Positions 4,727-22,931 of a stretch of DNA of 32,000 nt are shown piece by piece. The DNA is taken from the NCBI RefSeq assembly GCF_000341395.1, contig NC_020304.1, forward strand, positions 3,570,001 through 3,602,000, read 5' to 3'. Positions within the stretch are counted from its first letter, which is position 1. Each line of letters opens with the position of its first letter. Under the pieces are notes generated by a model. It did not search any database and was not told the origin of the DNA. It saw only the letters and a list, made by a program, of their open reading frames with translations. The position numbers and the translations under genes were made by a program. This DNA comes from Desulfocapsa sulfexigens DSM 10523 (GTDB lineage: Bacteria; Desulfobacterota; Desulfobulbia; Desulfobulbales; Desulfocapsaceae).

Positions 4727-4937
4727 GCAGCAGAAAATCAGGCGTTTTCTTATCAAAAAGTCCTGCATACAGGGAATATATTGAACCATTTCCCAGACTA
4801 CAAAAATCACGGAGAGATTAATATGATAGCTAATATTTAATCATTTAAAGGAAGACAAAGTCAAATCTATTCCGAAGTCCCTGACACCACAATACCATCA
4901 CTACGTTTCCAGGTGGACGTTATCTCCGCTCAAGAGG

Positions 4938-5143
4938 TTATCCGTTTCGACGATACTGGACTGCTTCGGCAATATGTGATATTTTAAGAAGTTCCTTATT
5001 ATCCATATCAGCGATTGTTCGGGCGATTTTAAGAATACGATGATATCCCCTGGCAGAAAGGCCAAGCTTTTCCACGCTTCTTTGCAATAAACGCTTTGCC
5101 GTTGCATCAACCTTGCAATATTTTTCCACTTCAGCTGGGCCAA
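4938..5143 (-). pseudogene. displaced 3' fragment of comM/yifB (attL-like direct repeat of 22726..22931)
   Basis: 206 bp matching the stop codon plus roughly the last 68 codons of the intact comM, with 5 mismatches by eye. The track ORF within it (4938..5129) translates as MEKYCKVDATAKRLLQRSVEKLGLSARGYHRILKIARTIADMDNKELLKISHIAEAVQYRRNG. Homology ends abruptly at 5143/5144 and no upstream comM sequence follows. Confidence 0.9.
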
Positions 5144-6207: not shown

Positions 6208-6245
6208 GGCGAAGCGTTTCCCTCCACCGTGTCCTGGGGGAGTCA

Positions 6246-6701
6246 GGGGTCAAGTCTGCCTTTGACCTTTGTAAACTTTTTTCCTTATCGTTCAAGGTCT
6301 TTTCTCGGTCCACTGTCACTCTCAATTCTAAATTCCACTCGCTGGACAACACTACTTTCCTAAAAATGAGAACACCGTTACCTGGCCTTATAGTCCCCCC
6401 AATTGAACCCCAAGGACAAAACTAACCTGTGTCAAGGGATTATTTGTCGATTATTCATCCAGTTACCTAGATCAGTCCCCATTGCCCACAGGCTGTTATA
6501 CAGAAAAAAAATTAGTCAGAAAAAAGGGGTCAAGCCTGCCCTTGACCTTTCTCTTCAATCGAGCAGCGAATGATATGGGCAACCCTTTAGTTTACCGACT
6601 ATTTTCCACATAGCCAAGCGCAAAAAAAACATGGGAGCAGAAATTCCAGGTTGATTTGATATCACACATTCACCACAAAGGTCAAAGGGAGACTTGACCC
6701 C
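6246..6701. mobile_element. MITE-like 456-bp element bounded by 25-bp terminal inverted repeats (GGGGTCAAGTCTGCCTTTGACCTTT), with a third internal copy
   Basis: Left copy at 6246..6270 (+). Right copy at 6677..6701 (-, 24/25 match). Internal copy at 6526..6550 (+, GGGGTCAAGCCTGCCCTTGACCTTT). Each copy contains a GGTCAA/TTGACC hairpin. No coding capacity and no obvious target-site duplication. Confidence 0.55.
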
Positions 6702-8011
6702 TTTTTTTTTACAATCAATTCACCTTCCAGGTTACCGAAAATATAATGCCTGTCTGTAAAATCCGGTACGCCGTTTCCTGCATAGGCATCTATGCCAAGG
6801 GTTGTGTCACAAAACTGCATATCATCGCCGGTGGGGGAAAGTGTATCTTCATGCATTGTTTGATAGAGAAAGAGGGAACGATCTTCGAGATATTGGGTTG
6901 AATATTCGGCAGCCACCAGATTGACATAGCCTGGCTGGTTGCCAGAGATGGCAAAACCAGCTAACGCGTTTAAGGCAAAAAGAAAGGCGTTGTCATTTTC
7001 TGCAGCACTTCGGAGAGCTTCGGCAGAATGCTCATGCAGTGATGTTACCGTCAAACCAGTCAGGCTATGGTCGTTGGCATACCCGGTTAATTCAATGGCA
7101 AGATCAACAGAGACCTGGGTGGGGTCAATACCGGCCTGAAAAACATTATTAACAACCGATAAGGCATGCTCATCGGGCATTTTTTCCAGAAAAGGGGTAA
7201 AGTCATCGGGATTATCACTGCCGCTGATGGTCGAGAAAAGATTGTAGATGCATAGAGAAGAGGTTAATCCAACGATACTGTGAGCAGTCAGTGGATTTTG
7301 TGCATCAACAGATATAATAATTGGTGTGGAGACGGAAAGGCCGACGGACGAAACAATATCGTCCGTTGCGACAATATTAGAAACTGGCAACACAGTAGGA
7401 AGAGCAATAGGATTATCTGGTGAAAGAGCACTTGAGATGGCTTCAATAATATTGCCGCCGACACCTGTCACCCCTGGTGCGTTGTAGATAAAGGTTTGTG
7501 TCACATCTGTAGAATATTCAAGTGTGAGATTGGTGGCAAGAAAACCGCCCAGTGAATGTCCCGTTACTAAAAAACCGGAATGAAGATCACCTAAATCCAC
7601 CCATTTTTCTACTTGCGCTGAAAGTGCTTTGTATTGTGCTTGGTATTCACTTGTGCCCAGTGCCCCAATATCAATAACGTCGGTAATAACGTCGTTAAGA
7701 TCGTTAGTGCCGCGCACGGCAATTACTTGTTTACCACTGCTATCCTCAAAAAGTGTTACTGATAAACCGGTAGGATTGAGAAAGGTATGCTCCAAACCAA
7801 ATTCGTCAACGTAACTCTCTTCGACAGTTCCATCGTATTGGTCGATAACATTCCAATTACTGGAGAAATCTTGGGCTTGGGTGAGCGTCATGCCATTGCC
7901 ATTGTTTTGTAATGCATCGGTATAATCTTTACCAGACATTCCTGGAGACAGATTTGAGTATGATGCAAGTGCAAGTTCAGCTTGTAGGTAATATTCACTA
8001 ATCGTACTCAT
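6662..8011 (-). CDS. class-3 lipase (GHSLGG) domain protein, 3'-truncated paralog lacking the RTX region (P1)
   Basis: 449-aa ORF with a lipase-like head (AVRGT ... VTGHSLGGFLA; GHSLGG codons at 7544..7561). The C-terminal ~180 aa are nearly identical to the 1153-aa paralog. That homology stops at 6712, and the last 16 codons (VKKKGSSLPLTFVVNV) read through a poly-T tract and the 25-nt repeat. Confidence 0.8.
   Translation of the reverse strand: MSTISEYYLQAELALASYSNLSPGMSGKDYTDALQNNGNGMTLTQAQDFSSNWNVIDQYDGTVEESYVDEFGLEHTFLNPTGLSVTLFEDSSGKQVIAVRGTNDLNDVITDVIDIGALGTSEYQAQYKALSAQVEKWVDLGDLHSGFLVTGHSLGGFLATNLTLEYSTDVTQTFIYNAPGVTGVGGNIIEAISSALSPDNPIALPTVLPVSNIVATDDIVSSVGLSVSTPIIISVDAQNPLTAHSIVGLTSSLCIYNLFSTISGSDNPDDFTPFLEKMPDEHALSVVNNVFQAGIDPTQVSVDLAIELTGYANDHSLTGLTVTSLHEHSAEALRSAAENDNAFLFALNALAGFAISGNQPGYVNLVAAEYSTQYLEDRSLFLYQTMHEDTLSPTGDDMQFCDTTLGIDAYAGNGVPDFTDRHYIFGNLEGELIVKKKGSSLPLTFVVNV
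6712..7255 (-). repeat. linker-module repeat shared with 16038..16581
   Basis: Collinear with a constant offset of 9326 nt and no indels. Near-identical by eye with scattered substitutions. Encodes ...NLFSTIS..DDFTPFLEKMPD.HALSVVNNVFQAGID...RHYIFGNLEGELI in both lipase paralogs. Confidence 0.85.
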
Positions 8012-8571
8012 TTTTTATATTCCTTTGTGAAAATTGAAGATTCAAAATTGGAGTTTCCAGTGATATCGAAGCATGAGAAACTTGATCCATGCCATAATCC
8101 AGGCAAATCACCACCACCTCGACCATAACGGACATATTCACCTAACACTTTACCATCAATACGTCTGACAATTCGAGTTTGCTTGCGTGTTACCTGAGGA
8201 TCATTTCTGTGGTAATAAAAAAGGTCACTTTCATAAAAATAATTATCCGTCGGTTTTGCTTTGGATTTGTCTGGTATTTTAATTCTACCAAATTTGTCAA
8301 TTAGGTCAGGCGGTAGCTCCACAGTTTCATAGACTTTTACACCACCATCTTTTGCACAGAGCTTCTCCACTTTGAGATCCCAATATATCTTCTTGCCAGC
8401 TACTTCCCAGAAAGTTCCGCCAAGCCAGACCGAAGAAAGAAGCACTCCAAGAAGGATATGTGAAATCTTTTGTGTTAAGTTCGCAGGCTTCCAATGTTGC
8501 CAGATACGATAGAGTACCCAGCTCACAAACAGCCAAATTGCAATCAGTGTTAATAAATAAATCCCGCTCAT
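8008..8571 (-). CDS. two-TM membrane protein, lipase-associated partner family member I1 (candidate immunity or accessory protein)
   Basis: 187-aa ORF. Its stop overlaps the lipase start (ATGA at 8008..8011). GGAGGG lies 7 nt upstream of the ATG. Two N-terminal hydrophobic helices separated by a basic loop. VYETVE motif and a C-terminal RRIDGKVLGEYVRY motif are shared in pattern with the ORFs at 12931, 17436 and 19443. Confidence 0.75.
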   Translation of the reverse strand: MSGIYLLTLIAIWLFVSWVLYRIWQHWKPANLTQKISHILLGVLLSSVWLGGTFWEVAGKKIYWDLKVEKLCAKDGGVKVYETVELPPDLIDKFGRIKIPDKSKAKPTDNYFYESDLFYYHRNDPQVTRKQTRIVRRIDGKVLGEYVRYGRGGGDLPGLWHGSSFSCFDITGNSNFESSIFTKEYKK

Positions 8572-8640
8572 GCTGCCACCCTCCAGTCAAATCTTGTGCC
8601 GTCGCCGTAATCACCCATAATGAAATCTCCGTGGATAAAT

Positions 8641-8894
8641 GGGGTCAGAGTAATTTTAAACTCCGCCCCATCAAGAAGATAAATAAAACAACAATCGTAG
8701 CAATCCATTATTTTTCACTAAGAGTGAAATAATTAACATCAAAACGGAGAAGCATCAACATCTAACATCTGTTATATTAGTACGTTATAGATGCCTAAGT
8801 GCTAACATCATTGTCATTTCAATGCCTCCAGATGTTTTCCTAAAAATTAAAGATAAAAAATAATAAAAACAACATTTTCAAGCTGTTCTCTGTT
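8641..8894 (-). repeat. conserved cassette-upstream region U (homologous to 22160..22378)
   Basis: Begins with the 32-nt element GGGGTCAGAGTAATTTTAAACTCCGCCCCATC (8641..8672). Contains a 39-nt block (8810..8848) matching 22289..22327 at 38 of 39 positions. Overall similarity is roughly three quarters by eye. Confidence 0.7.
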
Positions 8895-11290
8895 CGGTGA
8901 CAACGGGGTCGGACCAAATTAACAGTTTGAATATTAAACATTTTATCTCCAAAAGCAGATCTTTCTGGGGCTTAAAACACCCTTTTCAGTATCAAAAACA
9001 GTACTGTAAAGAATGTGGTTACAATAAAGCTAAAACCCCGATGGTACTCAACCGCTCTATCTCATCACTCTCAATCCCAACAAGCACAGGGCAAGTGAAC
9101 CTGATCACTCCCTGCATTTCCATAGAGTGCATCATCACCGGCTTCACCAAACAAGTTATCATTGTCAGTATCACCGTAGAGTTCATCATTACCGTTTCCA
9201 CCATACAGATTGTCTTCCCCCTGGCCTCCATATAACGCATCATCACCAATACCGGTTCCATCACTATTATCGCCATAGAGATAATCATTGTCTGATTCCC
9301 CGTATAAGAGATCATTCCCGTCTCCGCCCCGGAGTTGATCCTCACCACTTCCACCATACAATTCATCCATACCTGAACCGGTATTATCAGGGTTATCTCC
9401 TAAAAGAAGGTCATTTCCATCTCCGCCATAAAGTGAATCATCGTCTTCTCCACCGGCAAGACTGTCATTACCTATTTCTCCATGCAATGCATCATTGCCC
9501 AGACCTCCCTGGAGTACGTCATCGCCATGACCACCAAAAAGTGCATCTATACCGTCGCCACCAAAAAGATCGTCATTGTCATCATCGCCATAGAGGACAT
9601 CATTTCCTCCTGAACCGTAAAGCACATCTTCACCGGAGCCACCATGCAATTCATCATTTCCAGTACCACTTAAATCGCCATAATCACCATACAGATGATC
9701 ATCACCATCTCCACCGGAAAGGATATCGTCACCTCCCTCGCCAGCGAGTGCATCGTCACCGATCTCACCATAAAGGGAATCATCTCCTCCTCCGCCAAGC
9801 AGTTGATCATTACCCAGGCCACCGTAAAGTAGATCCTCACCGGTACCTGTGTTATTCCATTCATCTCCTCTTAAGACATCGTCACCATCTCCGCCGAAAA
9901 GCTGATCATTATCAAGGCCGCCATACATATCATCGTTACCCTCTCCACCATAGAGGATATCATTGCCTTCCTGGCCATAAAGCCTGTCAAGATCTTCTTC
10001 TCCAAACAAAACATCATTACCAAGTGATCCCTGAAGAAGATCGTCACCTGTGCCGCCCAGCAGATAATCATCTCCAGCGTCACCAAATAGCCTGTCAACA
10101 CCTTCTTCTCCAATGAGGGTGTCGTTGCCATTTCCCCCCATCAGGTTATCATCACCTATTCCGCCAAAAAGGATATCATTACCGTCTCCACCCCATGCGT
10201 TATCATTATCAGATTCTCCGTAGAGCTTATCATCACCACCCATACCAAGGAGTTGATCATCACCCAGACCACCATAAAGGGAGTCATTACCGTTTATTCC
10301 AAACAACGTATCGGAACCACCATAGCCATACACTGTAAAGGTGGAGAGAGCGGATACGTCACTGTCAAACAGGACAGTTTCACTTCCATCTGCATATTGG
10401 ATACTAAAATGATAATTCCAGGTATCGGCTGTTATCTGGCTCAGACTTGAAACTTCCATCTCATCAGTACCAGCCAGGGAGTTGGTGTTTGGAGTGGGCT
10501 CTACATAGTCAGCCAGATTGAAGCCGAAATCGCCCGAGGAAAAGGAGTTTATGGTAAAATAGAAATTACTGGCCAGGGAAAACAGGTTCAGCGTTTGATT
10601 GGTGGAGTCATAACGAACTCTGTAATTAGCATCTTCGTAGATGTCGCTGTTTTCCTGAATTTGATTAAAGGTGAGACCTGTTATCTGATTGGCTCCATAC
10701 CAGATGGTACCCTGATTATCCGCATCGTCAACAATATCGCCGACACCGATATGGTAGGTGTCATTGCCGATACCGCCGTAAAGGGTGTCTTGAACAAAAT
10801 CATCCACACCATCTATGCCTGCCCCATATAAGATATCATCTCCCCCAGCACCGTTTATTGTATCAATGCCGGTGCCGCCGGAGATGGTATCTTGATCACT
10901 ACTTCCGGTCAGGGTGTCCTGGCCTGCCCCACCTTCTATGCGGGCAATGTTGGAGACTGTTATTCCTGTTAAGTCTATGGTGTTGTCGCCTGCGGTTCCG
11001 GCCAGTATATTTAGTCCTTCTCCACCGTCTATTATTTCTATGGAGTTTTCTGCAAGGGAGAGGGTGTTTACTCGGATGGTGTCATCCAGGTTGCCTCCGA
11101 GGATTTTATCCTCATCACCAGTACCGCCGTTGAAGGTGTCGAAGGCTTCAGGATCTTCATCTGTGCCATGGATGATGAAGGTGTCGTTTCCGGCTCCTCC
11201 GTTCATGGTGTCGCTGCCGGAGCCTCCTTCGAGGATGTCGTTGCCGGCATTGCCGGTTAGGGTGTCATTGCCTGCCATGCCGTAGAGGTG
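8895..11290 (-). repeat. large direct repeat, copy 1 (RTX coding region plus 176-bp downstream tail); partner is 13784..16017
   Basis: Collinear near-identity by eye from the REP-like end (CGGTGACAACGGGGTCGGACC) through the whole RTX region up to the DHLYGM codons (11276..11290 vs 16003..16017). The length difference is 162 nt, explained by two in-frame indels of 108 and 54 nt. Confidence 0.9.
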
Positions 11291-12934
11291 ATCGTCACTG
11301 AGAGCACCAATCAATTTGGCGCTGTCATCTCCTTCCGTGCCAAAGATATAATCTCCATATGGAAGTTCTTCGTCGGGAGGATTGAGTTCAATACCTGATT
11401 GCAGATCATGAAAGTGTTTCTGCTCAGAGTAATTGTGCATGGTGTGGTAGAGGAATTTTGTTCTATCTTCGAAGTATTGTGATGAAAAGTTATCTAAATC
11501 TAACTCGTTGTTTGCATTCAAACTGCTATATTGACTATTCGGGCCCGTTATCGTGATGGGATTCAACCTTTGTAAAGCAAAGCGATATGCCATGCCAGTA
11601 CCATTATCTTGGCTTGCAAACGAAATAATGTCAGACTCTGAGATATCACCTAAAAATGATATTTCATATTGGCCTTGTGAAGATTGGGTTGCATTTCGAA
11701 CTTGAAATATCTTTTCATAGAGTTCTTCTCGAGCAACATCCCCGTTCTTTACGTCGAATGGTGAATAATCCTGTACGCATATTTCACCAAAGGTATTGAT
11801 AACCGTTTCGAGCGTTATATGGTTGTCTCTTCCTTGCCGATATGCATTGAAGACAGGGAGAAGAGATTGAAAAAACTGCGATCCATCCATCGAAGAATAC
11901 ATATCATCCAAGCGGCCAAAAAGGTCATAAACCGCCAGAGAATCTGTCATCTGTTCTTTTCCATGACCCGCAGTTGTTCCTGATAGAGATACAGATTCAA
12001 TAAATATTCCTTGGTGATCTCCTTGCTGACCGAGGGCAAACACACTGTCCATGGTCGTCATTTCCAGGAACTTATCACCAAAAATATTTAATATTTTCGA
12101 ACTCTCAAAAGAATCGCTTCCCCCAAGCATAGCAAAGAGGTTACGGATGTTGGTCTCGCCGTTCCCGCTCAAGCCACTAAGCGCTTCTGTCATATACCCA
12201 GCACCATTTATGGTCACAACATCATCACAGACAGAACCGAAAAGCCGTGAGAATGCAGCGGCCAGATGCCCACCCAAACTATGACCTACTGCTGTAACCT
12301 GTCCTTCAATATCATGGGATAACGCACCATATTGTCTTTCATCCGTGAATATTTCGTTCGAATAGACATCGGTGTTGATAGTGTATACCGTGCCGGTTGG
12401 CATATCGATTATGACATTATCCAATGTCCGCAGGTATAGTTCATATGGGCCGGCTACACCCAGAGGCATAGCAGTTTGTTCTGCCGCAAGTAGAGCCGTT
12501 TTGTCCGTCAACAGCTCCAATTCCGCTGCTTTATAGACGGTATTTGGAGCTGCATTTATTCTTTGCCAGTCGTTATACATGTCGACTATTTGCTTAATCG
12601 CCAGCCCATCGTAAACAATGTCACCACCGTCTGTAACGAGTAGATCGTCAATTCCCGGTTCCGTACCTCGGCATGCATAATGGTATTTGCCTGTGTTCTT
12701 ATTCCGAAAAAGAGTAGCTGAAAAGCCTGTATCGGTGTTGGGTTGGTGATAAATCACTTCCCAATTGTTGACAAAATCTTCAGCTTGCTCAGCTGTCATT
12801 TTGCCCTCAAAAGCGCTGTTTTGTAAAGCGTCTCTTATATCATCCTCAATAGTTAGATCCTCTATTTTATCAAAAAGAACGTAGGCCGCTTCAGACAATA
12901 ACGCCATATCGTAATAAATGGATGAACTGCTCAT
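9071..12934 (-). CDS. giant lipase-RTX protein (class-3/family I.3-like GHSLGG lipase head + hemolysin-type Ca-binding repeats), P2
   Basis: 1287-aa ORF. Head motifs are ACRGT and AVGHSLGGHLAAAF, followed by a unique middle region. Then come two blocks of GGxGxDxUx nonapeptides (several dozen units) separated by a non-repeat beta-rich module. The ORF ends only 13 aa after the last repeat (..GSDQVHLPCACWD). Confidence 0.9.
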   Translation of the reverse strand: MSSSSIYYDMALLSEAAYVLFDKIEDLTIEDDIRDALQNSAFEGKMTAEQAEDFVNNWEVIYHQPNTDTGFSATLFRNKNTGKYHYACRGTEPGIDDLLVTDGGDIVYDGLAIKQIVDMYNDWQRINAAPNTVYKAAELELLTDKTALLAAEQTAMPLGVAGPYELYLRTLDNVIIDMPTGTVYTINTDVYSNEIFTDERQYGALSHDIEGQVTAVGHSLGGHLAAAFSRLFGSVCDDVVTINGAGYMTEALSGLSGNGETNIRNLFAMLGGSDSFESSKILNIFGDKFLEMTTMDSVFALGQQGDHQGIFIESVSLSGTTAGHGKEQMTDSLAVYDLFGRLDDMYSSMDGSQFFQSLLPVFNAYRQGRDNHITLETVINTFGEICVQDYSPFDVKNGDVAREELYEKIFQVRNATQSSQGQYEISFLGDISESDIISFASQDNGTGMAYRFALQRLNPITITGPNSQYSSLNANNELDLDNFSSQYFEDRTKFLYHTMHNYSEQKHFHDLQSGIELNPPDEELPYGDYIFGTEGDDSAKLIGALSDDHLYGMAGNDTLTGNAGNDILEGGSGSDTMNGGAGNDTFIIHGTDEDPEAFDTFNGGTGDEDKILGGNLDDTIRVNTLSLAENSIEIIDGGEGLNILAGTAGDNTIDLTGITVSNIARIEGGAGQDTLTGSSDQDTISGGTGIDTINGAGGDDILYGAGIDGVDDFVQDTLYGGIGNDTYHIGVGDIVDDADNQGTIWYGANQITGLTFNQIQENSDIYEDANYRVRYDSTNQTLNLFSLASNFYFTINSFSSGDFGFNLADYVEPTPNTNSLAGTDEMEVSSLSQITADTWNYHFSIQYADGSETVLFDSDVSALSTFTVYGYGGSDTLFGINGNDSLYGGLGDDQLLGMGGDDKLYGESDNDNAWGGDGNDILFGGIGDDNLMGGNGNDTLIGEEGVDRLFGDAGDDYLLGGTGDDLLQGSLGNDVLFGEEDLDRLYGQEGNDILYGGEGNDDMYGGLDNDQLFGGDGDDVLRGDEWNNTGTGEDLLYGGLGNDQLLGGGGDDSLYGEIGDDALAGEGGDDILSGGDGDDHLYGDYGDLSGTGNDELHGGSGEDVLYGSGGNDVLYGDDDNDDLFGGDGIDALFGGHGDDVLQGGLGNDALHGEIGNDSLAGGEDDDSLYGGDGNDLLLGDNPDNTGSGMDELYGGSGEDQLRGGDGNDLLYGESDNDYLYGDNSDGTGIGDDALYGGQGEDNLYGGNGNDELYGDTDNDNLFGEAGDDALYGNAGSDQVHLPCACWD

Positions 12935-13503
12935 CGTTTTTCCTCACCGGTTTGTTTGTAAGTTTTTTTTAACTCACTAAATTCCTTTTTTTTAATAGCT
13001 GGCTGTCTCAGATGTGTCCAGAATTTAAGATCGCTTGAAGAACCACTATATATTTGCACGCGTTTGGCTAACGTCTCATCGGTCTTAGTATCGATAATGA
13101 GTTCTTCTTGTGTTACGACGGGAAGAATGGGTAAGCGATGTTCAATAAATACCCAACCAATCCGCTGATTTAATTTATACCCCCTTGTAATACCAGTAGC
13201 TTCATAAGAAGGTGACAACTTCTTCCAAGTCAAAGTCTCAGCAACTCCAGGGTTCTCTGCCTTCCACTGTTCCAGAGTCTTATAGACCCAGAAACCTGAC
13301 CTGGTATGGACGAGATATTTGAAGGTGATCAGTGTCGGCAGATAATCCCAGAAAACAAGGTTGTACATTATAAAAGCAACCAACCCGCCCCATAACCATG
13401 CCCGCCTGCCTCTATTCTTAGCCCACCGGACAGCAAGAACGGTAACTCCGATCGAAACTGCCAAATAAAACACAAAAAAAACAATTACCGCTAAACCGAA
13501 CAT
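12931..13503 (-). CDS. two-TM membrane protein, lipase-associated partner family member I2
   Basis: 190-aa ORF. Its stop overlaps the P2 start (ATGA at 12931..12934). GGGGAGG RBS upstream. Layout is TM1, basic loop (RWAKNRGRR), TM2. Motifs VYKTLE and LIIDTKTDETLAKRVQIY. Confidence 0.75.
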   Translation of the reverse strand: MFGLAVIVFFVFYLAVSIGVTVLAVRWAKNRGRRAWLWGGLVAFIMYNLVFWDYLPTLITFKYLVHTRSGFWVYKTLEQWKAENPGVAETLTWKKLSPSYEATGITRGYKLNQRIGWVFIEHRLPILPVVTQEELIIDTKTDETLAKRVQIYSGSSSDLKFWTHLRQPAIKKKEFSELKKTYKQTGEEKR

Positions 13504-13520
13504 TCTTCTACCTCCCCGTT

Positions 13521-13773
13521 AATACGGGGTCGGACCAAGCTAACATGCTGAATGTTAAACATTTTGTCTCCAATAATAGGTGTTTTTATGGCTTAGAGTA
13601 CCCTTTTCAGCATCAAAAACGGTGCTGTAAGCAATTTCAGGCTCTTTCAAAACAGTAGCATCTTTGACTGAAACTATGGAGCGCTTCTGTGCCCGGCTTG
13701 CAAGTTGCTGCTGAATATCTTCTGTAAATGATTTTCTGCCAACGGCACTGGACTCACTCCAATCTTGATTTCT
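13521..13773 (-). pseudogene. 3' fragment of the RAYT-type transposase gene with its REP-like end (type B)
   Basis: Near-identical to 18487..18739 of the intact unit. Encodes only the C-terminal ~73 aa (NQDWSES..KNTYYWRQNV) and lacks the HUH and Tyr motifs. Starts with AATACGGGGTCGGACCAAGC (13521..13540). Confidence 0.85.
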
Positions 13774-13783
13774 CAGCAAGAAA

Positions 13784-16017
13784 CGGTGACAACGGGGTCG
13801 AACCAAGTTAACAGTTTGAATATTAAACATTTTACCTCCAAAAACAGATCTTTCTAGAGCTTAAAACACCCTTTTCAGTATCAAAAACAGTACTGTAAAG
13901 AATGTGGTTACAATAAAGCTAAAGCCCCGATGGTACTCAACCGCTCTATCTCATCACTCTCAATCCCAACAAGCACAGGGCAAGTGAACCTGATCACTGC
14001 CTGTATTTCCATAGAGTGCATCATCACCGGCTTCACCAAACAGGTTATCATTGTCAGTATCACCGTAGAGTTCATCATTACCATTTCCACCATACAGATT
14101 GTCTTCCCCTTGGCCTCCATATAACGCATCATCACCAATACCGGTTCCATCACTATTATCGCCATAGAGATAATCATTGTCTGATTCCCCGTATAAGAGA
14201 TCATTTCCGTCTCCGCCCCGGAGTTGATCATCACCACTTCCACCGTACAATTCATCCATACCTGAACCGGTATTATCAGGGTTATCTCCTAAAAGAAGGT
14301 CATTCCCATCTCCGCCATAAAGTGAATCATCGTCTTCTCCACCGGCAAGACTGTCATTACCTATTTCTCCATACAATGCATCATTGCCCAGACCTCCCTG
14401 GAGTACGTCATCGCCATGACCACCAAAAAGTGCATCTATACCGTCGCCACCAAAAAGATCGTCATTGTCATCATCGCCATAGAGGGTGTCATTTCCTCCT
14501 GAACCGTAAAGCACATCTTCACCGGAGCCACCATGCAATTCATCATTTCCAGTACCACTTAAATCGCCATAATCACCATACAGATGATCATCACCATCTC
14601 CACCGGAAAGGATATCGTCACCTCCCTCGCCAGCGAGTGCATCGTCACCGATCTCACCATAAAGGGAATCATCTCCTCCTCCGCCAAGCAGTTGATCATT
14701 ACCCAGGCCACCGTAAAGTAGATCCTCTCCGGTTCCTGTGTTATCCCATTCATCTCCTCTTAAGACATCGTCACCATCTCCGCCGAAAAGCTGGTCGTTA
14801 TCAAGGCCGCCATACATATCATCGTTACCCTCTCCACCATAGAGGATATCATTGCCTTCCTGGCCATAAAGCCTGTCAAGATCTTCTTCTCCAATGAGGG
14901 TGTCATTGCCATTTTGCCCCATCAGGTTATCATCACCTATTCCGCCAAAAAGGATATCATTACCGTCTCCACCCCATGCGTTATCATTATCAGATTCTCC
15001 GTAGAGCTTATCATCACCGCCCATACCCTGGAGTTGATCATCACCCAGACCACCATAAAGGGAGTCATTGCCGTTTATTCCAAACAACGTATCGGAACCA
15101 CCATAGCCATATACTGTAAAGGTGGAGAGAGCAGATACATCACTGTTAAACAGGATAGTTTCACTTCCATCTGCATGTTGGATACTGAAATGATAATTCC
15201 AGGTATCGGCTGTTATCTGGCTCAGACTTGAAATTTCTATCTCATCAGTACCAGTCAGGGAATTGGTGTTTGGGGTGGGCTCTACATAGTCAGCCAGATT
15301 GAAGCCGAAATCGCCCGAGGAAAAGGAGTTTATGGTAAAATAGAAATTACTGGCCAGGGAAAACAGGTTCAGCGTTTGATTGGTGGAGTCATAACGAACT
15401 CTGTAATTAGCATCTTCATAGATGTCACTGTTTTCCTGAACTTGATTAAAGGTGAGATCTGTTATCTGATTGGCTCCATACCAGATGGTACCCTGATTAT
15501 CAGCGTCGTCAACAATATCGCCGACACCGATATGATAGGTGTCATTGCCGATGCCGCCGGAAAGGGTGTCACGGACATTGTCTTCCTGGTTGGTTAATGT
15601 ACCGCCATAAAGGATATCATCTCCACTTGAACCGGTTATGGTGTCGGCTCCACCTCCGCCTTCTATTCGGTTTATGTGGGTTACTGTGATGCCGGTTAGG
15701 TCTATGGTGTTGTCGCCGCTGGTTCCGGCAAGGATGTTTTCTCCGGCTCCTCCGTCTATTCTTTCTATGGAGTTATCTGCAAGGGAGAGCGCGTTTACTC
15801 GGATGGTGTCGTCCAGGTTGCCTCCGAGGATTTTATCCTCATCACCAGTACCGCCGTTGAAGGTGTCGAAGGCTTCAGGATCTTCATCTGTGCCGTGGAT
15901 GATGAAGGTGTCGTTATCGGCTCCTCCGTTCATGGTGTCGCTGCCGGAGCCGCCTTCGAGGATATCGTTTCCGCCGTTGCCGGTTAGGGTGTCGTTACCG
16001 TCCATGCCGTAGAGGTG
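13784..16017 (-). repeat. large direct repeat, copy 2 (partner of 8895..11290)
   Basis: See copy 1. This copy carries the single hybrid version of the 26-nt AGCCTGTCAAGATCTTCTTCTCCAAT motif (from 14870) where copy 1 has two versions 108 nt apart. Confidence 0.9.
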
Positions 16018-17421
16018 GTCTTCCTTGGAATTGCCTTCAATCAATTCGCCTTCCAGGTTACCGAAAATATAATGCCTGTCTGTAAAATCCGGTACGCCGT
16101 TTCCTGCATAGGCATCTATGCCAAGGGTTGTGTCACAAAACTGTATATCATCGCCGGTGGGGGAAAGTGCATCTTCATGCATTGTTTGATAGAGAAAGAG
16201 GGAACGATCTTCGAGATATTGGGTTGAATATTCGGCAGCCACCAGATTGACATAGCCTGGCTGGTTGCCAGAGATGGCAAAACCAGCTAACGCGTTTAAG
16301 GCAAAAAGAAAAGCGTTGTCATTTTCTGCAGCACTTCGGAGAGCTTCGGCAGAATGCTCATGCAGTGATGTTACCGTCAAACCAGTCAGGCTATGGTCGT
16401 TGGCATACCCGGTTAATTCAATGGCAAGATCAACAAAGACCTGGGTGGTGTCAATACCGGCCTGAAAAACATTATTAACAACCGATAAGGCATGCCCATC
16501 GGGCATTTTTTCCAGAAAAGGAGTAAAGTCATCGGCATTGTTGCTGCTGCTGATGGTTGAAAAAAGGTTGTAGACGTACAGGGATTCGACAAGAGTACCG
16601 ATAGAATGGTAGTGAACGGGGTTGAATGTACTATCGCTGATAGAAATATTGACATCGGCACTCCCGATATCAGTTCCAAGATCGGCGACAAGATCATGGG
16701 GTATATCCCACCAAGTTTCTGAGGATTTGACATTTGTTACCAGGCTGTCGACTCCGTTCTTATTAGACTCAAAGTTGGAATAAGCGTCATAAAGCTCTTG
16801 TGTGATTTCTACTGGCCCAAACAACGATTCACCGGTTATATCATCATAACCAATAAAGGCTTCTTTATAATATCTCCCATTACTTGTCGATAATTCTGGA
16901 GATTCCAGATCTTTTGCACCTGGAGAATTATAAGTGTAACTCTCATCAACAAAATCGGTATAGGTCGCGGTAAAGATCTGAGCTAATGCACCACCCAAGG
17001 AATGACCTGTAACAGTAAGCTTTTCTCCGCTTAATACCTTATCATCTTCTTGAAGCTTTTCGAAAAATGATACCATGTCTTCAAATTGGAGCGGCGTATT
17101 GCCTGCTTTTAGCCCGAGAATATCATCATCCCAATCAGTGCCAATCAATTGGTCGGTTCCACGGATGGCCAGTATTTTTTTACCACTATTAATGTCTTCA
17201 AACAACGTGGCGCTGAATCCGCTTTCTGGACCTATGTTGTATTCGGCGCTGGTGGCAAGGACATTGTAGTGCTCAACAAAATTATCAGCCTGTTTTTGAG
17301 TAAAATTACGGTCATTCTTTAGTGACTTTATAATGTCATCATCCAATGTAGTTTGTATGATATCAATATAGCTTGCATCAGCCAATTCACCAAATTGTAA
17401 CAATTCTGGAATAGTTGCCAT
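13960..17421 (-). CDS. giant lipase-RTX protein, P3 (different lipase head, same RTX chassis as P2)
   Basis: 1153-aa ORF. Head motifs are AIRGT and VTGHSLGGALAQIF. The linker is identical in type to P1. The RTX blocks and the C-terminus (..GSDQVHLPCACWD) are near-identical to P2. Confidence 0.9.
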   Translation of the reverse strand: MATIPELLQFGELADASYIDIIQTTLDDDIIKSLKNDRNFTQKQADNFVEHYNVLATSAEYNIGPESGFSATLFEDINSGKKILAIRGTDQLIGTDWDDDILGLKAGNTPLQFEDMVSFFEKLQEDDKVLSGEKLTVTGHSLGGALAQIFTATYTDFVDESYTYNSPGAKDLESPELSTSNGRYYKEAFIGYDDITGESLFGPVEITQELYDAYSNFESNKNGVDSLVTNVKSSETWWDIPHDLVADLGTDIGSADVNISISDSTFNPVHYHSIGTLVESLYVYNLFSTISSSNNADDFTPFLEKMPDGHALSVVNNVFQAGIDTTQVFVDLAIELTGYANDHSLTGLTVTSLHEHSAEALRSAAENDNAFLFALNALAGFAISGNQPGYVNLVAAEYSTQYLEDRSLFLYQTMHEDALSPTGDDIQFCDTTLGIDAYAGNGVPDFTDRHYIFGNLEGELIEGNSKEDHLYGMDGNDTLTGNGGNDILEGGSGSDTMNGGADNDTFIIHGTDEDPEAFDTFNGGTGDEDKILGGNLDDTIRVNALSLADNSIERIDGGAGENILAGTSGDNTIDLTGITVTHINRIEGGGGADTITGSSGDDILYGGTLTNQEDNVRDTLSGGIGNDTYHIGVGDIVDDADNQGTIWYGANQITDLTFNQVQENSDIYEDANYRVRYDSTNQTLNLFSLASNFYFTINSFSSGDFGFNLADYVEPTPNTNSLTGTDEIEISSLSQITADTWNYHFSIQHADGSETILFNSDVSALSTFTVYGYGGSDTLFGINGNDSLYGGLGDDQLQGMGGDDKLYGESDNDNAWGGDGNDILFGGIGDDNLMGQNGNDTLIGEEDLDRLYGQEGNDILYGGEGNDDMYGGLDNDQLFGGDGDDVLRGDEWDNTGTGEDLLYGGLGNDQLLGGGGDDSLYGEIGDDALAGEGGDDILSGGDGDDHLYGDYGDLSGTGNDELHGGSGEDVLYGSGGNDTLYGDDDNDDLFGGDGIDALFGGHGDDVLQGGLGNDALYGEIGNDSLAGGEDDDSLYGGDGNDLLLGDNPDNTGSGMDELYGGSGDDQLRGGDGNDLLYGESDNDYLYGDNSDGTGIGDDALYGGQGEDNLYGGNGNDELYGDTDNDNLFGEAGDDALYGNTGSDQVHLPCACWD
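16038..16581 (-). repeat. linker-module repeat shared with 6712..7255
   Basis: See 6712..7255. Confidence 0.85.
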
Positions 17422-17435
17422 CTCTAGCCCCCTAG

Positions 17436-18149
17436 CTAATTATCTTTTGATTTCAGTGTGTTATATATCAATACTTCACTATTACCTTTAAATGGGCAAA
17501 GTGTTCCAAGAGAACCATCAACATTGAGCAATGTCGCCCTAAGCCACCCTCTATTCCATCTGTACATTACTCGAATCCCCAAAGTCTCATTATGATGTCT
17601 GTCATTGATTTCCGTATAGATAAATTTATCTATAGTCGGTATTGCCAGGATTCTTTGGTCTTTGTTAGGCTGATAAGCTACCTCATACCTGCTGACTTCA
17701 TCAGGTTGCAATGGCTTCACTGCAAAACAAGGTATTTCCTGGTCAAAGGATTCTTTAAACTTATATTCATCCTTCTTTTTTGGCTTATAGCACCCTTCAG
17801 AACTTGCATCATTTAACCAATAACTACGAAAGAATTCACCGGTTTCTTCAACCTGGTAATCAATATATTTATAATTTTTATTTGGCATGCGGGGAGTACG
17901 TTTTATTCTCAATTCGCCCACATAAAACCCTTCCACATTCTCCACGGTCTTATAAATCTTCATGCCGGATTTAAATTTGCAGAAGTACCAGAAGGTGGGG
18001 TAGCCGATTATCACATCCCAGCTAGGAATTAGAGCCAGAATAATAATTCCAATGATTCTGCCTTTTGTTGATTTTGCGACCAAAACAATTACCAGTAATC
18101 CCAAAAGGAGGTAGATAGCTGCACCAAATATGACAAGAATCTGAATCAT
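17436..18149 (-). CDS. two-TM membrane protein, lipase-associated partner family member I3
   Basis: 237-aa ORF ending 14 nt upstream of the P3 start, with an AGGGGG RBS in the gap. Layout is TM1, KSTKGR loop, TM2. Motifs IYKTVE and YTEINDRHHNETLGIRVMY. Confidence 0.75.
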   Translation of the reverse strand: MIQILVIFGAAIYLLLGLLVIVLVAKSTKGRIIGIIILALIPSWDVIIGYPTFWYFCKFKSGMKIYKTVENVEGFYVGELRIKRTPRMPNKNYKYIDYQVEETGEFFRSYWLNDASSEGCYKPKKKDEYKFKESFDQEIPCFAVKPLQPDEVSRYEVAYQPNKDQRILAIPTIDKFIYTEINDRHHNETLGIRVMYRWNRGWLRATLLNVDGSLGTLCPFKGNSEVLIYNTLKSKDN

Positions 18150-18482: not shown

Positions 18483-18486
18483 TATT

Positions 18487-19434
18487 AATACGGGGTCGGA
18501 CCAAGCTAACATGCTGAATGTTAAACATTTTGTCTCCAATAATAGGTGTTTTTATGGCTTAGAGTACCCTTTTCAGCATCAAAAACAGTGCTGTAAGGAA
18601 TTCCAGGCTCTTTCAAAACAGTAGCATCTTTGACTGAAAGTATGGATCGCTTCTGTGCCCGGCTTGCAAGTTGCTGCTGAATATCTTCTGTAAATGATTT
18701 CCTGCCAACGGCAATGGACTCACTCCAATCTTGATTTCTTGTTAGGACGTTATTGTTTAGCTCAGCTGTTATCCAGTTAGTGTGCTCTTCGCGAAATCTG
18801 TTTTCATCCTGCATTGAAAAATAATCCAACAACATCTTCCTGTTGATAATGCCGTAACGCTTTGGAGGATTTTGAATTTCATTGTAACCACTATTTCTGT
18901 ATTCAGATGGATGTGATACGACGCCTGCCCTGACCATATTAAGATCAATATAGACCATGCATTTTGCAAGATGGTTGATTGTGTCAACGGCCGTGGCATG
19001 ATATCGGTCTTCCCAAAACGAACCTTTCCTCTGTTTCCGACTATTGAACTCCTGAGCTGTTCTTCCTGCAATTAACTGAAGACTTTGTGGAATAGTTTTT
19101 TCCCCTGTATCGACAACAAGTAAGTGGATATGGTTGGAAGTGACAATGTAATTTAGAACGCAAAGCCCATACCGCTTTTTTGCTTCGAATAACCAATAAA
19201 GCCAGCGTTTTCTGTCTTTTTCAAATTTCAGTAAAAACTCCTGCTTATGACATCGGTGTGTGATGTGCCAAACACAACCAGGAATATAATGTCTATTTGC
19301 TCGTGGCATGGTAGTTTAAATTTTCTTAGAAGGTTGTTTTGGACAACAAAAAGTTACCTTTAAGTGTTTATATGGCTTTTATTTCATAATATTTCTTGTT
19401 ATTCCTATATATTGGCTTGGTCCGACCCCGTATT
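18487..19434 (-). mobile_element. RAYT/IS200-like unit bounded by perfect 20-bp inverted repeats (AATACGGGGTCGGACCAAGC)
   Basis: 18487..18506 is the exact reverse complement of 19415..19434. The match breaks on both sides. The repeats enclose the 262-aa Y1 transposase ORF. This is the REP-flanked arrangement typical of REP-associated tyrosine transposases. Confidence 0.8.
18521..19309 (-). CDS. IS200-like Y1 (HUH) transposase, REP-associated tyrosine transposase (RAYT) type
   Basis: 262-aa ORF with N-terminus MPRANRHYIPGCVWHITHRC. HUH motif SNHIHLLV. Tyr motif YIDLNMVRAGVV (compare YxxxNPVRAGLV in COG1943/PF01797 proteins). Carries a ~100-aa C-terminal extension. Confidence 0.85.
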   Translation of the reverse strand: MPRANRHYIPGCVWHITHRCHKQEFLLKFEKDRKRWLYWLFEAKKRYGLCVLNYIVTSNHIHLLVVDTGEKTIPQSLQLIAGRTAQEFNSRKQRKGSFWEDRYHATAVDTINHLAKCMVYIDLNMVRAGVVSHPSEYRNSGYNEIQNPPKRYGIINRKMLLDYFSMQDENRFREEHTNWITAELNNNVLTRNQDWSESIAVGRKSFTEDIQQQLASRAQKRSILSVKDATVLKEPGIPYSTVFDAEKGTLSHKNTYYWRQNV

Positions 19435-19442
19435 CAACCGAG

Positions 19443-20390
19443 TTACCTCCGGTTTTCATGATATTTTTTTGATAATATTTTCAGCAAAGAATTATTTCTC
19501 CCTTGACGCGATCCATAAACATCTATTGATCCGAACAAAATCTTGTCAACAAACTGATAGGCCTGTTTGTCACCAAGCACCTGATGAAAATCAGGATTTG
19601 CACCGCCAAATTCGGAAAGCCAGTTCCCATATGCCATATACCTGCGGGAGAAGGCGATCACCTCGTTTTTCTCCATATCGGTGATGGTGATCTCGTCGGT
19701 GTGTAATAGTCTGGAGGCGGGGTAGCCGGTCTTTACCATGTTGAAATCCACCCGGTAGCGCATGGGTGGCAGTTTGTCCGGGGAAGCGAAGCCCTCAGCC
19801 CGATCCATGATGCTTTGTAATTCGCTTTTCCATGGTTCGTAATATGCACCAAACTCCGTAGAATTTTTTTCTATTTCTCTGATTGTCCGCCACAGTTCTC
19901 TGTTATCTAGACCCTTGCCACCCTTGCGGCGGACCTCCCTTGCACTTTCTTTCATAGCGTCCAGTTCCCGTTTTTTCTGATCCCGAGCTGGTCGCATTTT
20001 TTCACTCTCGGCAAAAGTTGAAGCATCGGCCCGGTACAGATAGATTTTCCCGTCATCGCCATTCACGGCCAGGGCCTGGAGATGCACGCCGTCAAGATAT
20101 TTTTCAACCATGCTTTCACGAAAGTGTTTGTCAAATCCCGGCCAGACATTGTCCTGCCAATACACAGAAATCGGCGCTTCAACGGTCTGATGAATCACCT
20201 GCAAGGGCTGCTTGCCGTAATACTCAAACAGCAAGTTGCACAGGATCGGCCGCCAGAATGGGCCGAAGATGAGCAGCAGCACTCCCAGCCACACCACTGC
20301 CTTCGACTTCGTCCACCGCTTGACGAGATACAACACAATCGCTCCCGCAAGCAGATAAATGGTTACAACAATAAGCAACGCTATTCCCAT
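19443..20390 (-). CDS. two-TM membrane protein, partner family member I4 (orphan: no adjacent lipase gene)
   Basis: 315-aa ORF. Layout is TM1, KRWTKSK loop, TM2. Motifs IHQTVE and ITITDMEKNEVIAFSRRYMAY. Its stop lies 8 nt from the RAYT inverted repeat. Confidence 0.7.
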   Translation of the reverse strand: MGIALLIVVTIYLLAGAIVLYLVKRWTKSKAVVWLGVLLLIFGPFWRPILCNLLFEYYGKQPLQVIHQTVEAPISVYWQDNVWPGFDKHFRESMVEKYLDGVHLQALAVNGDDGKIYLYRADASTFAESEKMRPARDQKKRELDAMKESAREVRRKGGKGLDNRELWRTIREIEKNSTEFGAYYEPWKSELQSIMDRAEGFASPDKLPPMRYRVDFNMVKTGYPASRLLHTDEITITDMEKNEVIAFSRRYMAYGNWLSEFGGANPDFHQVLGDKQAYQFVDKILFGSIDVYGSRQGRNNSLLKILSKKYHENRR

Positions 20391-20491: not shown

Positions 20492-20493
20492 TT

Positions 20494-20791
20494 AATACGG
20501 GGTCGGACCAAGCTAACATGCTGAATGTTAAACATTTTATCTCCAACAATACGTGTTTTTATGGTTTAGAGTACCCTTTTCAGCATCAAAAACGGTGCTG
20601 TAAGCAATTTCAGGCTCTTTCAAAACAGTAGCATCTTTGACTGAAACTATGGATCGCTTCTGTGCCCGGCTTGCAAGTTGCTGCTGAATATCTTCTGTAA
20701 ATGATTTTCTGCCAACGGCAATGGACTCACTCCAATCTTGATTTCTTGTTAGGACGTTATTGTTTAGCTCAGCTGTTATCCAGTTAGTGTG
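20494..20791 (-). pseudogene. 3' fragment of the RAYT gene with REP-like end (type B, second copy)
   Basis: Near-identical to 18487..18784. Encodes HTNWITAELNNNVLTRNQDWSES...KNTYCWR only and lacks the HUH and Tyr motifs. Confidence 0.85.
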
Positions 20792-20794
20792 AAC

Positions 20795-20960
20795 GCTAAC
20801 ACGGGATCGGACCAAGCTAACAACTTGAATATTAATAATTTTGTATCCAGAAACAGCCGTTACCTGGCCTTAGAGTGCCCTTTTTGCCATCAAAATGTGT
20901 GTCGTAAGAATCTTGACCAGCAACATTAGCATCCTTAACGGTTTATATTTTGGTCAACGA
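20795..20960 (-). repeat. divergent RAYT-3'-like tail with REP-like end (type C) downstream of the DUF4915-like gene
   Basis: GCTAACACGGGATCGGACCAAGCTAAC followed by sequence recognisably related to the RAYT 3' end (..GKKGTLRPGNGCFWIQN in translation). Much more diverged than types A and B. Confidence 0.55.
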
Positions 20961-21037: not shown

Positions 21038-22123
21038 CTATAACGTAGCTGCTGGCCCAATGGTAATCATCCGTTCTATCTCATCACTTTCAAAACCAAC
21101 AAGTAGAGGACAGATGGAACCCGGTATTGTAATCACGTCATACAATTCCTTGACTACACCTTCAATTATAAGGCTATGTACTATTTCTCCCGACTGAGTA
21201 TCAATAACCTGCAAGCCACAGCACTCCCCCCCAAGTGAAGGCAGCAAGTCATCCAAAACAAGATCTTGAAAAGCTGTACTTCCACGAGGACGTGAGAGAC
21301 CTACAATTGCATAGTTATCTACAAAGGTAAGCCCCCTAAGATAGCCAGGACATTTAGCGACCTGAATAAACTCGCTTTTGTTCAGGTATCCGAATTCACC
21401 CTTACCGGAGTTTAGTAACCAAATTTTGCCTTTGTAAAACCTGGGGGAATGGGGCATGGAAAGCCCTTGGGCGACAATTTCATTGGAGGCGACATCAATA
21501 ACAACCCCTCCATTCTGCCTGTTTTCTTTCTTTCTCCAGCCACCTCTTGAATTGGAGCGGGAAATTGACGTCACAACATATGGTTTTCCATCTCGCATTG
21601 CCAGACCGTTAAGATGGCATCTGTCTTCAGGGACAAGCTCTGAAATAAATTCAGGTTTCCATAGGGGAATAAAACTATGGGTGTTACTTGTTGTGGCCAA
21701 ACAATTAAACAATGTATTCACAAACAGAGGACGATTGTTATACCAGGCAATATCATGTCCACTCACCTTACCTGTTGTAAAGGCGAGCTGGGGAACATAC
21801 ACCTTGTCGTGCCCTTTATAATTTTCTCCAGGACTAGTGACATTATTGAGCTGCCATATTTGATAAAGAGTAGTGGTCAGCAAACGGTTCTTCTCTTCAT
21901 TGAGGCAAAGCCCCATACATCTGGCAAAATTTCTTTCATAAACAGAAAGTGATTGTTGCTTACTATCAAGCCCGACGAAAAGCAATTTCCCGGACTGATA
22001 TGTTGAGAAGGCTAGTGAAACATCATGGCTTCGAAGCCAGTTTTCTATTCCAAAACTTGCCTTGAGAACAAAATGTTTGGATTGAATTACAATCGAATTG
22101 TATTCAGTATTATTATTGGGCAT
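21038..22123 (-). CDS. TIGR03032/DUF4915-like uncharacterised protein (tentative family call)
   Basis: 361-aa soluble ORF. The motifs SMPHSPRFYKGKIWLLNSGKGEFG, RGLTFVDNYAIVGLS and CGLQVIDTQSGE recall that family from memory. An HMM search is needed to confirm. Confidence 0.75.
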   Translation of the reverse strand: MPNNNTEYNSIVIQSKHFVLKASFGIENWLRSHDVSLAFSTYQSGKLLFVGLDSKQQSLSVYERNFARCMGLCLNEEKNRLLTTTLYQIWQLNNVTSPGENYKGHDKVYVPQLAFTTGKVSGHDIAWYNNRPLFVNTLFNCLATTSNTHSFIPLWKPEFISELVPEDRCHLNGLAMRDGKPYVVTSISRSNSRGGWRKKENRQNGGVVIDVASNEIVAQGLSMPHSPRFYKGKIWLLNSGKGEFGYLNKSEFIQVAKCPGYLRGLTFVDNYAIVGLSRPRGSTAFQDLVLDDLLPSLGGECCGLQVIDTQSGEIVHSLIIEGVVKELYDVITIPGSICPLLVGFESDEIERMITIGPAATL

Positions 22124-22159
22124 AACTTGTCAGGCTCTGTTTGTTTTTCCTGCATAAAA

Positions 22160-22378: not shown

Positions 22379-22456
22379 GCAATATTGACTTTTTTTGCTA
22401 CTTTTCACTTTTCCACTAATGACACTCTTTATTTTGACAGGTTTGGTTAATGCGGC

Positions 22457-22676
22457 AATACGGGGCCTGACCAATTTAAAATGCTGAATTTTCATCCTGC
22501 ATAGAAAAGCAATCCAACACCATCTTTCTGTTGATAATGCTGTAAGGCTTTGGTGGTTTTGATTTTCATTGTAACCACTGGTTTTGTATTCAGATGGATG
22601 TGATACAACTCCAGCCCTGACCATATTACCATCAATATAGACCATGCATTTTGCAAGATGACTGAGTGAATGAACA
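22457..22676 (-). pseudogene. degenerate RAYT remnant (REP-like end fused to an internal gene segment)
   Basis: AATACGGGGCCTGACCAAT..ATGCTGAAT is joined directly to sequence homologous to 18801..~18990 of the intact gene (..YIDGNMVRAGVVSHPSEY..). It is frameshifted and truncated. It lies 50 nt from the comM stop. Confidence 0.75.
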
Positions 22677-22725
22677 ACAAGTAGGTGGGCGTCGGTGCCT
22701 TTCCAGATGGTCCTTATTTCAAAGA

Positions 22726-22931
22726 TTATCCATTTCGACGATACTGGACGGCTTCGGCAATATGTGATAATTCAAGAAGTTCCTTATTATCCATATCAGC
22801 GATTGTTCGGGCGATTTTAAGAATACGATGATATCCCCTGGCAGAAAGGCCGAGCTTTTCCACGCTTCTTTGCAATAAACGCTTTGCCGTTGCATCAACC
22901 TTGCAATATTTTTCCACTTCAGCTGGGCCAA
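22726..22931 (-). repeat. attR-like direct repeat: functional 3' end of comM, duplicated at 4938..5143
   Basis: See 4938..5143. Homology ends at 22931/22932. Confidence 0.9.

Follow-up and report, generated by a model that had tools for sequence, protein, structure and literature searches.

Two truncated RTX genes of Desulfocapsa sulfexigens probably end in the scar of a deletion across an RTX-DUF4915 tandem

Why do two large RTX genes of Desulfocapsa sulfexigens DSM 10523 stop almost as soon as their repeats do, inside what looks like the end of another gene? The question arises in a stretch of 32,000 nucleotides (NC_020304.1, positions 3,570,001 to 3,602,000; hereafter the window, with positions counted from its first letter), where RTX1 and RTX2 both end in ...GNAGSDQVHLPCACWD, with TGA stops at 9071-9073 and 13960-13962. 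Each end overlaps a short relic of the 3' end of a DUF4915 gene, an intact copy of which lies elsewhere in the window. All the genes concerned (RTX1, RTX2, DUF4915, the small membrane protein genes TM1 to TM4, the transposase gene RAYT and the lipase gene P1) are on the minus strand (Table 1). The proteins DUF4915, RTX1, RTX2, P1 and the transposase are each identical to a protein of D. sulfexigens. Here we argue that these RTX ends are probably the scar of a deletion of about 1.3-1.5 kb across an RTX-DUF4915 tandem, the truncated module having then been copied to a second cassette.

The two stretches at the RTX ends are homologous to the 3' end of the intact DUF4915 gene, as the original prediction held, and the formal nucleotide alignment that it called for places the similarity far beyond chance. 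Local alignments of the relics with the intact 3' end score 65-69, against 15.7 +/- 2.3 and a maximum of 27 in 500 shuffles, and the window contains three copies of an 18-mer from the core (AGTGATGAGATAGANCGG), against an expectation of 0.01. Relic and intact gene are 82.5% identical over the 57-nt core and about 72% identical over 78 codon-aligned nt. Both relics, read in the frame +1 to that of the RTX genes, give ...RFTCPVLVGIESDEIERLSTIG(V/A)LALL* with a TAA at 9019 and 13908, and this stop aligns with that of the intact gene, whose protein ends in ...SICPLLVGFESDEIERMITIGPAATL*. A tblastn search of the window with the DUF4915 protein recovered both relics at E of about 1e-6 and nothing else of note, including no further DUF4915 fragments near the relics. 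The RTX frames do read this DUF4915-like stretch in a different register, as had also been proposed, and reach their stop seven residues past the last nonapeptide.

How far can such a short stretch be assigned to one family? The relic translation CPVLVGIESDEIERLSTIG matches the conserved DUF4915/TIGR03032 motif CPxxxGFxSDEIRRxxTIG, and the longer tail motif, ELYDV..LPG..(R/C)P(M/L)x(I/L/V)G(F/L)xS(D/E)EI(R/E)(R/H)xx(T/S)(I/L/V/M), is found across phyla in 120 of the 120 DUF4915 homologues listed. Because the motif is common to the homologues, the stretch at the RTX ends can be taken as a DUF4915 gene remnant. The tail lies beyond the Pfam DUF4915 profile (aa 26-340) and within the TIGR03032 profile (aa 21-354). 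In an AlphaFold2 model of the DUF4915 protein, a beta-propeller (mean pLDDT 88, pTM 0.89), it is the last short strand and coil of the propeller; the model thus depicts it as an integral part of one protein family, not as an independent module. The full domain of about 335 residues in an open reading frame (ORF) of its own is missing from the relics, which keep about 25 codons: they are gene remnants, not genes. Ten positions of the 57-nt core differ between relic and resident gene; in the DUF4915 frame, 3 of them are first, 1 is a second and 6 are third codon positions. This third-position bias indicates that the relic diverged under DUF4915 coding constraint, so its source would have been a once-functional paralogue. 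The window's own gene is the nearest to the relics (82.5%); those of L002 and L004, two relatives described below, reach 65-67%. A fold search with the DUF4915 model returned generic six-bladed propellers of the YWTD/LRP6 type at a template modelling score of about 0.5 and gave no clue to function, and a literature search on DUF4915/TIGR03032 found no paper in the library consulted.

The RTX genes lack the part that normally follows the repeats. Both proteins have the tandem Ca-binding nonapeptides GGxGxDxUx that are the hallmark of RTX substrates of type 1 secretion systems (T1SS), with HemolysinCabind profile matches at E = 3.5e-85 and 2.9e-76 over 19-20 stretches. Like the HlyA, serralysin and lipase classes of such substrates, they place an N-terminal enzymatic domain before long runs of these repeats. 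The last complete nonapeptide in both is GNAGSDQVH, and after its GSD the sequence leaves the x-L-(Y/F)-G continuation of the repeat. The original prediction had counted 13 residues after the last nonapeptide; since GNAGSDQVH is itself complete, the number is 7 (LPCACWD). At least 50 residues follow the last repeat in 111 of 120 RTX relatives (median 98), and 100-200 do so in full-length lipase-RTX homologues. The extreme C-terminal 50-60 residues of T1SS RTX substrates are necessary and sufficient for secretion (PMC8870123). RTX1 and RTX2 differ from these substrates in having no non-repeat C-terminal secretion signal, over the last 50-60 aa or more, beyond the seven residues that they keep, which bears out the earlier remark that the normal secretion domain is missing. 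They also differ in their surroundings, with no T1SS genes (ATP-binding cassette [ABC] transporter, membrane fusion protein [MFP] or outer membrane factor [OMF]) among the ORFs of the 32-kb window.

The sequence downstream of the relics links them to the place of a DUF4915 gene. Each relic is followed by a RAYT 3'-end remnant and a repetitive extragenic palindromic (REP) sequence, in agreement with the earlier observation that the tail travels with RAYT-derived sequence. Downstream of RTX2, the order is DUF4915 tail, RAYT remnant 2 with REP (about 115 nt), RAYT remnant 1 with REP (255-300 nt) and the next TM gene. The flank of the intact DUF4915 gene is collinear with this for more than 500 nt and differs only by a 121-nt spacer and a 36-nt extra segment. 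The flank of RTX1 has the first two elements only. The collinearity implies that the RTX genes occupy the former place of a DUF4915 gene body relative to the same downstream landmarks.

The remnants trace to a RAYT gene that is still live in the window. This gene has a Y1_Tnp match at E = 2.6e-10 and is bracketed by inverted 26-mers (18487-18512 and 19409-19434); the window has 8 occurrences of the REP core. The gene thus shows the hallmark of REP/RAYT systems, a Y1 IS200-like transposase between inverted REPs with dispersed REP copies, although it scores 62 against the NCBIfam RAYT model, under the cutoff of 80. The likeness to described systems (REPINs; PMC3116915, PMC3337134) extends to a Y1-transposase gene between inverted REPs and to REPs scattered between genes. 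What sets the window apart is that REP doublets are not its only scattered copies: some are remnants, 115-300 nt long, of the RAYT coding sequence at its 3' end. These dispersed repeats, at 8896-9010, 13519-13899, 20492-20908 and 22437-22700, are 74-97% identical to the live gene (18521-19309).

What would bring a DUF4915 gene next to an RTX gene? In relatives the two are neighbours. Of the DUF4915 relatives that could be assigned to contigs, L004 and L002 are the two closest (61% and 69% identity). In L004 (2234-11065), DUF4915 begins at 10001, 16 nt past the end (9985) of an RTX gene of 2583 aa on the same strand; in L002 (3-2832), 98 nt separate the end of an RTX ORF at 1670 from the DUF4915 start at 1768, again on the same strand. 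Over 911 aa, RTX2 and the L004 RTX protein share 41% identity, and the match takes in a rare internal non-RTX domain, TIW(Y/F)G...F(T/S)SGD(F/Y)G; the L004 protein is a true homologue of RTX2. It retains a C-terminal domain of 102 aa.

The linkage holds more broadly. We sampled 82 DUF4915 loci, those of 80 GTDB genomes (L005-L084; cyanobacteria, planctomycetes, proteobacteria and verrucomicrobia) together with L002 and L004, and scored as an RTX neighbour any ORF with at least 4 nonapeptide motifs ending no more than 1 kb from DUF4915. Such a neighbour is present at 24 of the 82 loci. The density of RTX ORFs is 16.5 per 100 kb in the first kb and about 1.3 per 100 kb at 1-10 kb, a difference of about 12-fold, and all 8 RTX neighbours tested carry both HemolysinCabind and FG-GAP repeats. 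In nine of the ten RTX ORFs directly upstream of DUF4915, 93-117 aa follow the last repeat, and a short hydrophobic stretch closes most of these regions; in the tenth ORF (L081) the number is 27. The lipase-RTX homologue P0361 has the same type of C-terminal domain, with T1SS ABC and MFP genes adjoining. T1SS genes (C39-ABC transporter, MFP or OMF) adjoin the lipase-RTX homologues in both L085 and L093.

The homology is shown directly, as are a tail conserved throughout the family, flanks that run collinear, synteny in relatives and the lack of a C-terminal domain; from these we infer a deletion, its size and a loss of secretion, as follows. The starting state would have been a full-length lipase-RTX gene with a second DUF4915 gene immediately 3' to it, on the same strand. 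To judge by L004, one deletion of roughly 1.3-1.5 kb would have run from within the last RTX repeats to about DUF4915 codon 335. It would have removed the last repeats, the non-repeat C-terminal (type 1 secretion) domain of about 100 aa, the short intergenic spacer and about 335 of the roughly 360 DUF4915 codons (about 93% of the gene). The join would have been out of frame, such that the RTX ORF enters DUF4915 sequence for seven codons (LPCACWD) and then meets a TGA. Since RTX then DUF4915 is a conserved pair in relatives, one deletion accounts at once for the lost C-terminal domain of the RTX protein and for the fact that no more than the last ~25 codons of DUF4915 survive. It also explains the missing intergenic region, the kept DUF4915 stop and downstream flank, and the out-of-frame join. 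The scar would have no function of its own, and both proteins would be left without the C-terminal signal needed for type 1 secretion.

Why, then, do two genes share the scar? The truncated 3' module (RTX repeats, scar and RAYT remnant with REP) would subsequently have been duplicated or gene-converted onto the neighbouring cassette, leaving an identical scar in RTX1 and RTX2. Positions 8895-10005 and 13784-14894 are 97.75% identical (1.1 kb), followed by blocks at 95% and 87%, and the duplicated block stops exactly at the REP. The N-terminal lipase domains of the two proteins are only 31% identical. This difference between a near-identical 3' block and divergent N-termini indicates that the truncated 3' module was duplicated, or passed by gene conversion, from one cassette to the other; the scar predates the RTX1/RTX2 split of that module. 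In the way that a neighbour-gene fragment survives out of frame, with flanks collinear with an intact paralogue, these ends resemble ordinary pseudogenisation scars. They are unlike them in two respects: the truncated RTX ORFs are still intact reading frames of considerable length (1153 and 1287 aa), and a second cassette has received a copy of the scarred module.

Several observations weigh against the deletion. No relic of an RTX C-terminal domain was found in the window by tblastn, including upstream of the intact DUF4915 gene, so the ancestral RTX-DUF4915 tandem in D. sulfexigens is inferred from relatives only. The position of DUF4915 relative to the RTX gene varies, being downstream in some relatives and upstream in others. 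Neither a close orthologue of RTX1 or RTX2 nor a pre-deletion allele was found in the searched protein and metagenome collections. The exact breakpoint is also uncertain: MAFFT aligns GTGAT and GGTTC on both sides of the junction, with a gap of 9-10 nt relative to the resident gene, and on this alignment the break probably lies at one or the other of these microhomologies.

The search for orthologues went beyond the ends of the genes. RTX1 and RTX2 are singletons in the protein collection, and the C-terminal 309 aa of RTX as query brought up only generic RTX proteins of at most 47% identity. The internal non-RTX domain (TIWYGANQ...FSSGDFGFNLADYV) lies at 10298-10783 in RTX1 and 15052-15537 in RTX2. 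A word-indexed protein search found no relatives of this domain; of two metagenome scans with it, the first found none and the second gave 6 weak partial matches, none of them near DUF4915. Among proteins and loci retrieved by other means, it is matched in L004, L085 (P0361), P0316, P0283, P0275, P0298 and P0273 at 27-48% identity. The domain is rare and unannotated.

Could the same ends have arisen in another way? The original prediction was right to see a recombination scar here. It favoured the splicing of RTX genes into a pre-existing DUF4915 cassette (tail plus RAYT remnant and REP), with RTX bodies recombining in at the cassette end and replacing the DUF4915 body. The same tail and RAYT remnant with REP at every cassette end would fit this order of events, as would the duplicated block that stops exactly at the REP and a mosaic region so rich in RAYT remnants that REP-guided rearrangement is plausible. 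We nevertheless consider it unlikely. It would require the RTX C-terminal domain to have been lost separately, for no evident reason, and ignores that RTX and then DUF4915 are already neighbours in the closest relatives, where one deletion explains both facts; since the two are a conserved pair, this part of the proposal is weaker than its converse. That the shared 3' stretch was kept as a DNA or RNA element (a terminator, REP-like structure, regulatory RNA or recombination site) might be suggested by its three copies in 12 kb, each adjoining REP sequences. The idea of a shared functional 3' module, also raised at first, finds no support in a terminator scan of the stretch, in folding energies (no better than those of shuffles) or in Rfam (no family). 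The substitutions follow a protein-coding pattern in the DUF4915 frame, and the motif is a protein motif conserved across phyla, all of which makes such an element very improbable.

It is also tempting to rescue the proteins by a change of frame. Programmed +1 recoding at GAU-UGA-G would add ESDEIERLSTIGVLALL, and a shift further upstream would yield a 27-aa tail, either serving as a functional C-terminus. The +1 frame is indeed open up to a stop that aligns with the DUF4915 stop, the tail is acidic and then hydrophobic, and the relic is still well preserved. However, in the context UGG GAU UGA G, the P-site GAU cannot re-pair in +1 (AUU), there is no Shine-Dalgarno-like stimulator upstream, and the RNA folds no better than shuffles (z = -0.13) and has no Rfam match. 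We found no slippery site at the RTX ends, as the original prediction had also remarked, and the open +1 frame of 115 codons follows simply from the composition of RTX repeats. The AlphaFold model shows the tail as the last strand and coil of a beta-propeller and not as a secretion domain, and the tail is far shorter than the 93-117-aa domains of relatives. Neither HLPCACWD nor an in-frame DUF tail occurs in any of the 276 non-DUF4915 proteins fetched. Recoding is therefore scarcely credible, and the odd RTX terminus can be explained without it. Equally hard to believe is a frameshift introduced by sequencing or assembly, with the true genes in frame with the tail. Nothing speaks for it directly, apart from short C and G runs near the junction; the two separately assembled copies, which differ nearby, have the same frame, and an in-frame tail would still not restore a normal C-terminal domain. 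The simplest reading of the two ends is a deletion or fusion scar.

Table 1. Features of the island, listed 5' to 3' along the minus strand (REP, repetitive extragenic palindromic sequence)
Feature	Position	Strand	Remarks
comM-like gene	22726..24246	minus	
RAYT remnant	22437..22700	minus	
Intact DUF4915/TIGR03032 gene	21038..22123	minus	beta-propeller; the relics correspond to its last 88 nt (21038-21125)
Two RAYT 3' remnants + REPs	20492..20908	minus	downstream of intact DUF4915; order as downstream of RTX2
TM4	19443..20390	minus	analogous to TM2
Live RAYT	18483..19434	minus	Y1 transposase, ORF 18521..19309; 26-nt inverted REPs on both sides
TM3	17436..18149	minus	analogous to TM2
RTX2 (AGF79751.1)	13960..17421	minus	1153 aa; Lipase_3/DUF6792 N-terminus + RTX repeats; truncated end same as RTX1
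DUF4915 relic 2	13908..13991	minus	second copy of DUF4915 3' relic, at RTX2 end
RAYT 3' remnant + REP (remnant 2)	13785..13899	minus	downstream of relic 2; same type as 8896..9010
Younger RAYT 3' remnant (remnant 1)	13519..13818	minus	97% identical to live RAYT; collinear with 20492-20791
TM2, small membrane protein	12931..13503	minus	overlaps RTX1 start by 4 nt
RTX1 (AGF79748.1)	9071..12934	minus	1287 aa; lipase-like N-terminus + about 40 RTX nonapeptides
DUF4915 relic 1	9019..9102	minus	last ~25 codons + stop; +1 to RTX1 frame; RTX1 reads LPCACWD*
RAYT 3' remnant + REP (GGTCCGACCCCGT) (remnant 2)	8896..9010	minus	directly downstream of relic 1; 3' boundary of RTX1/RTX2 duplicated block
TM1	8008..8571	minus	analogous to TM2
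P1, third lipase gene	6662..8011	minus	ends where RTX repeats should start; 97% identical to RTX2 linker region

The two D. sulfexigens entries annotated as 'Ca2+-binding protein, RTX toxin' are without a type 1 secretion part and should not be assumed to be exported toxins. The linkage of DUF4915 and RTX genes and the cassette arrays described below deserve more attention than the scar itself. DUF4915/TIGR03032 is a widespread uncharacterised beta-propeller family, found in physical linkage with large RTX/FG-GAP proteins in cyanobacteria, planctomycetes and proteobacteria, and arrays that pair small membrane proteins with 3'-truncated lipases and contain lipase-RTX genes are present in at least two unrelated genomes.

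These arrays are built from a recurring pair, [small membrane protein][lipase], with a 4-nt start overlap. The pair is conserved: in L085 a homologue of TM4 precedes the phospholipase-like RTX protein P0361. In the window itself, TM4 is followed by the live RAYT, where the lipase partner would be expected. The array of L093 (416-18397) starts with OEP and continues with [279 aa][414-aa lipase], [254 aa][464-aa lipase], [258 aa][798-aa lipase-RTX] and [230 aa][586 aa]; at its downstream end are [219 aa] and a giant full-length lipase-RTX gene of more than 3975 aa. Its small proteins are homologous to TM3 (34-37%) and TM4 (28%), and TM3-type proteins pair with RTX2-type lipases both in the window and in L093, as TM4-type proteins do with other lipases. 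The short L093 lipases stop where RTX repeats begin, as P1 does in the window; several lipases of these arrays end at the RTX region or short of it. P1 breaks from its RTX2 counterpart exactly at another inverted-repeat element (AGGGGTCAAG...CTTTGACC), which is found at 6245-6272, 6515-6559 and 6668-6712; its presence at the breakpoint suggests that P1 was truncated by a different repeat element. No further D. sulfexigens paralogues appeared among the top lipase homologues.

What might such arrays be for? Judged by their sequences, they may be toxin-immunity orphan cassettes of reversed polarity. The orphan toxin-immunity arrays of contact-dependent inhibition (CDI) and Rhs systems (PMC3482391) are alike in having tandem pairs of a variable enzymatic domain and a small partner protein, a conserved recombinogenic region, and several copies without the delivery part. 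They are unlike the arrays here, in which the variable domain is N-terminal, the partner gene lies upstream, the missing part is C-terminal and the immunity role is putative. The 2012 survey of polymorphic toxins does not mention T1SS and refers to N-terminal toxins once, in an unrelated context (PMC3482391). A tentative and unlikely extension is that the whole island is an orphan-module array of type-1-secreted, N-terminally polymorphic lipase effectors, each variable lipase domain having a putative cognate, immunity-like membrane partner upstream, with DUF4915 as a conserved accessory of such RTX substrates. If so, the copies without the C-terminal RTX/secretion part would be silent cassettes recombining via the shared RTX/linker region, a mirror image of the CDI/Rhs orphan arrays, and the scar would mark a former 'main' gene followed by DUF4915.

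The island also has recognisable borders. A 238-nt direct repeat, 4906-5143 and 22700-22931, is 93% identical overall and 99% identical over its inner 144 nt. It is the duplicated 3' end of the comM/Mg-chelatase-like gene, and the pair flanks the entire lipase/RTX/DUF4915/RAYT island of about 17.5 kb, in the manner of att sites around an inserted island; those 17.5 kb contain no recognised integrase. Inside the island, a 48-nt repeat (94%) at 8801-8848 and 22280-22327 includes GGAGG-ATG, and a short conserved peptide-like stretch, YL(I/L)DGAEF, precedes TM1 as well as the intact DUF4915 gene (8568-8708 and 22087-22239). These repeats upstream of TM1 and of the intact DUF4915 gene may represent a shared leader or promoter region.

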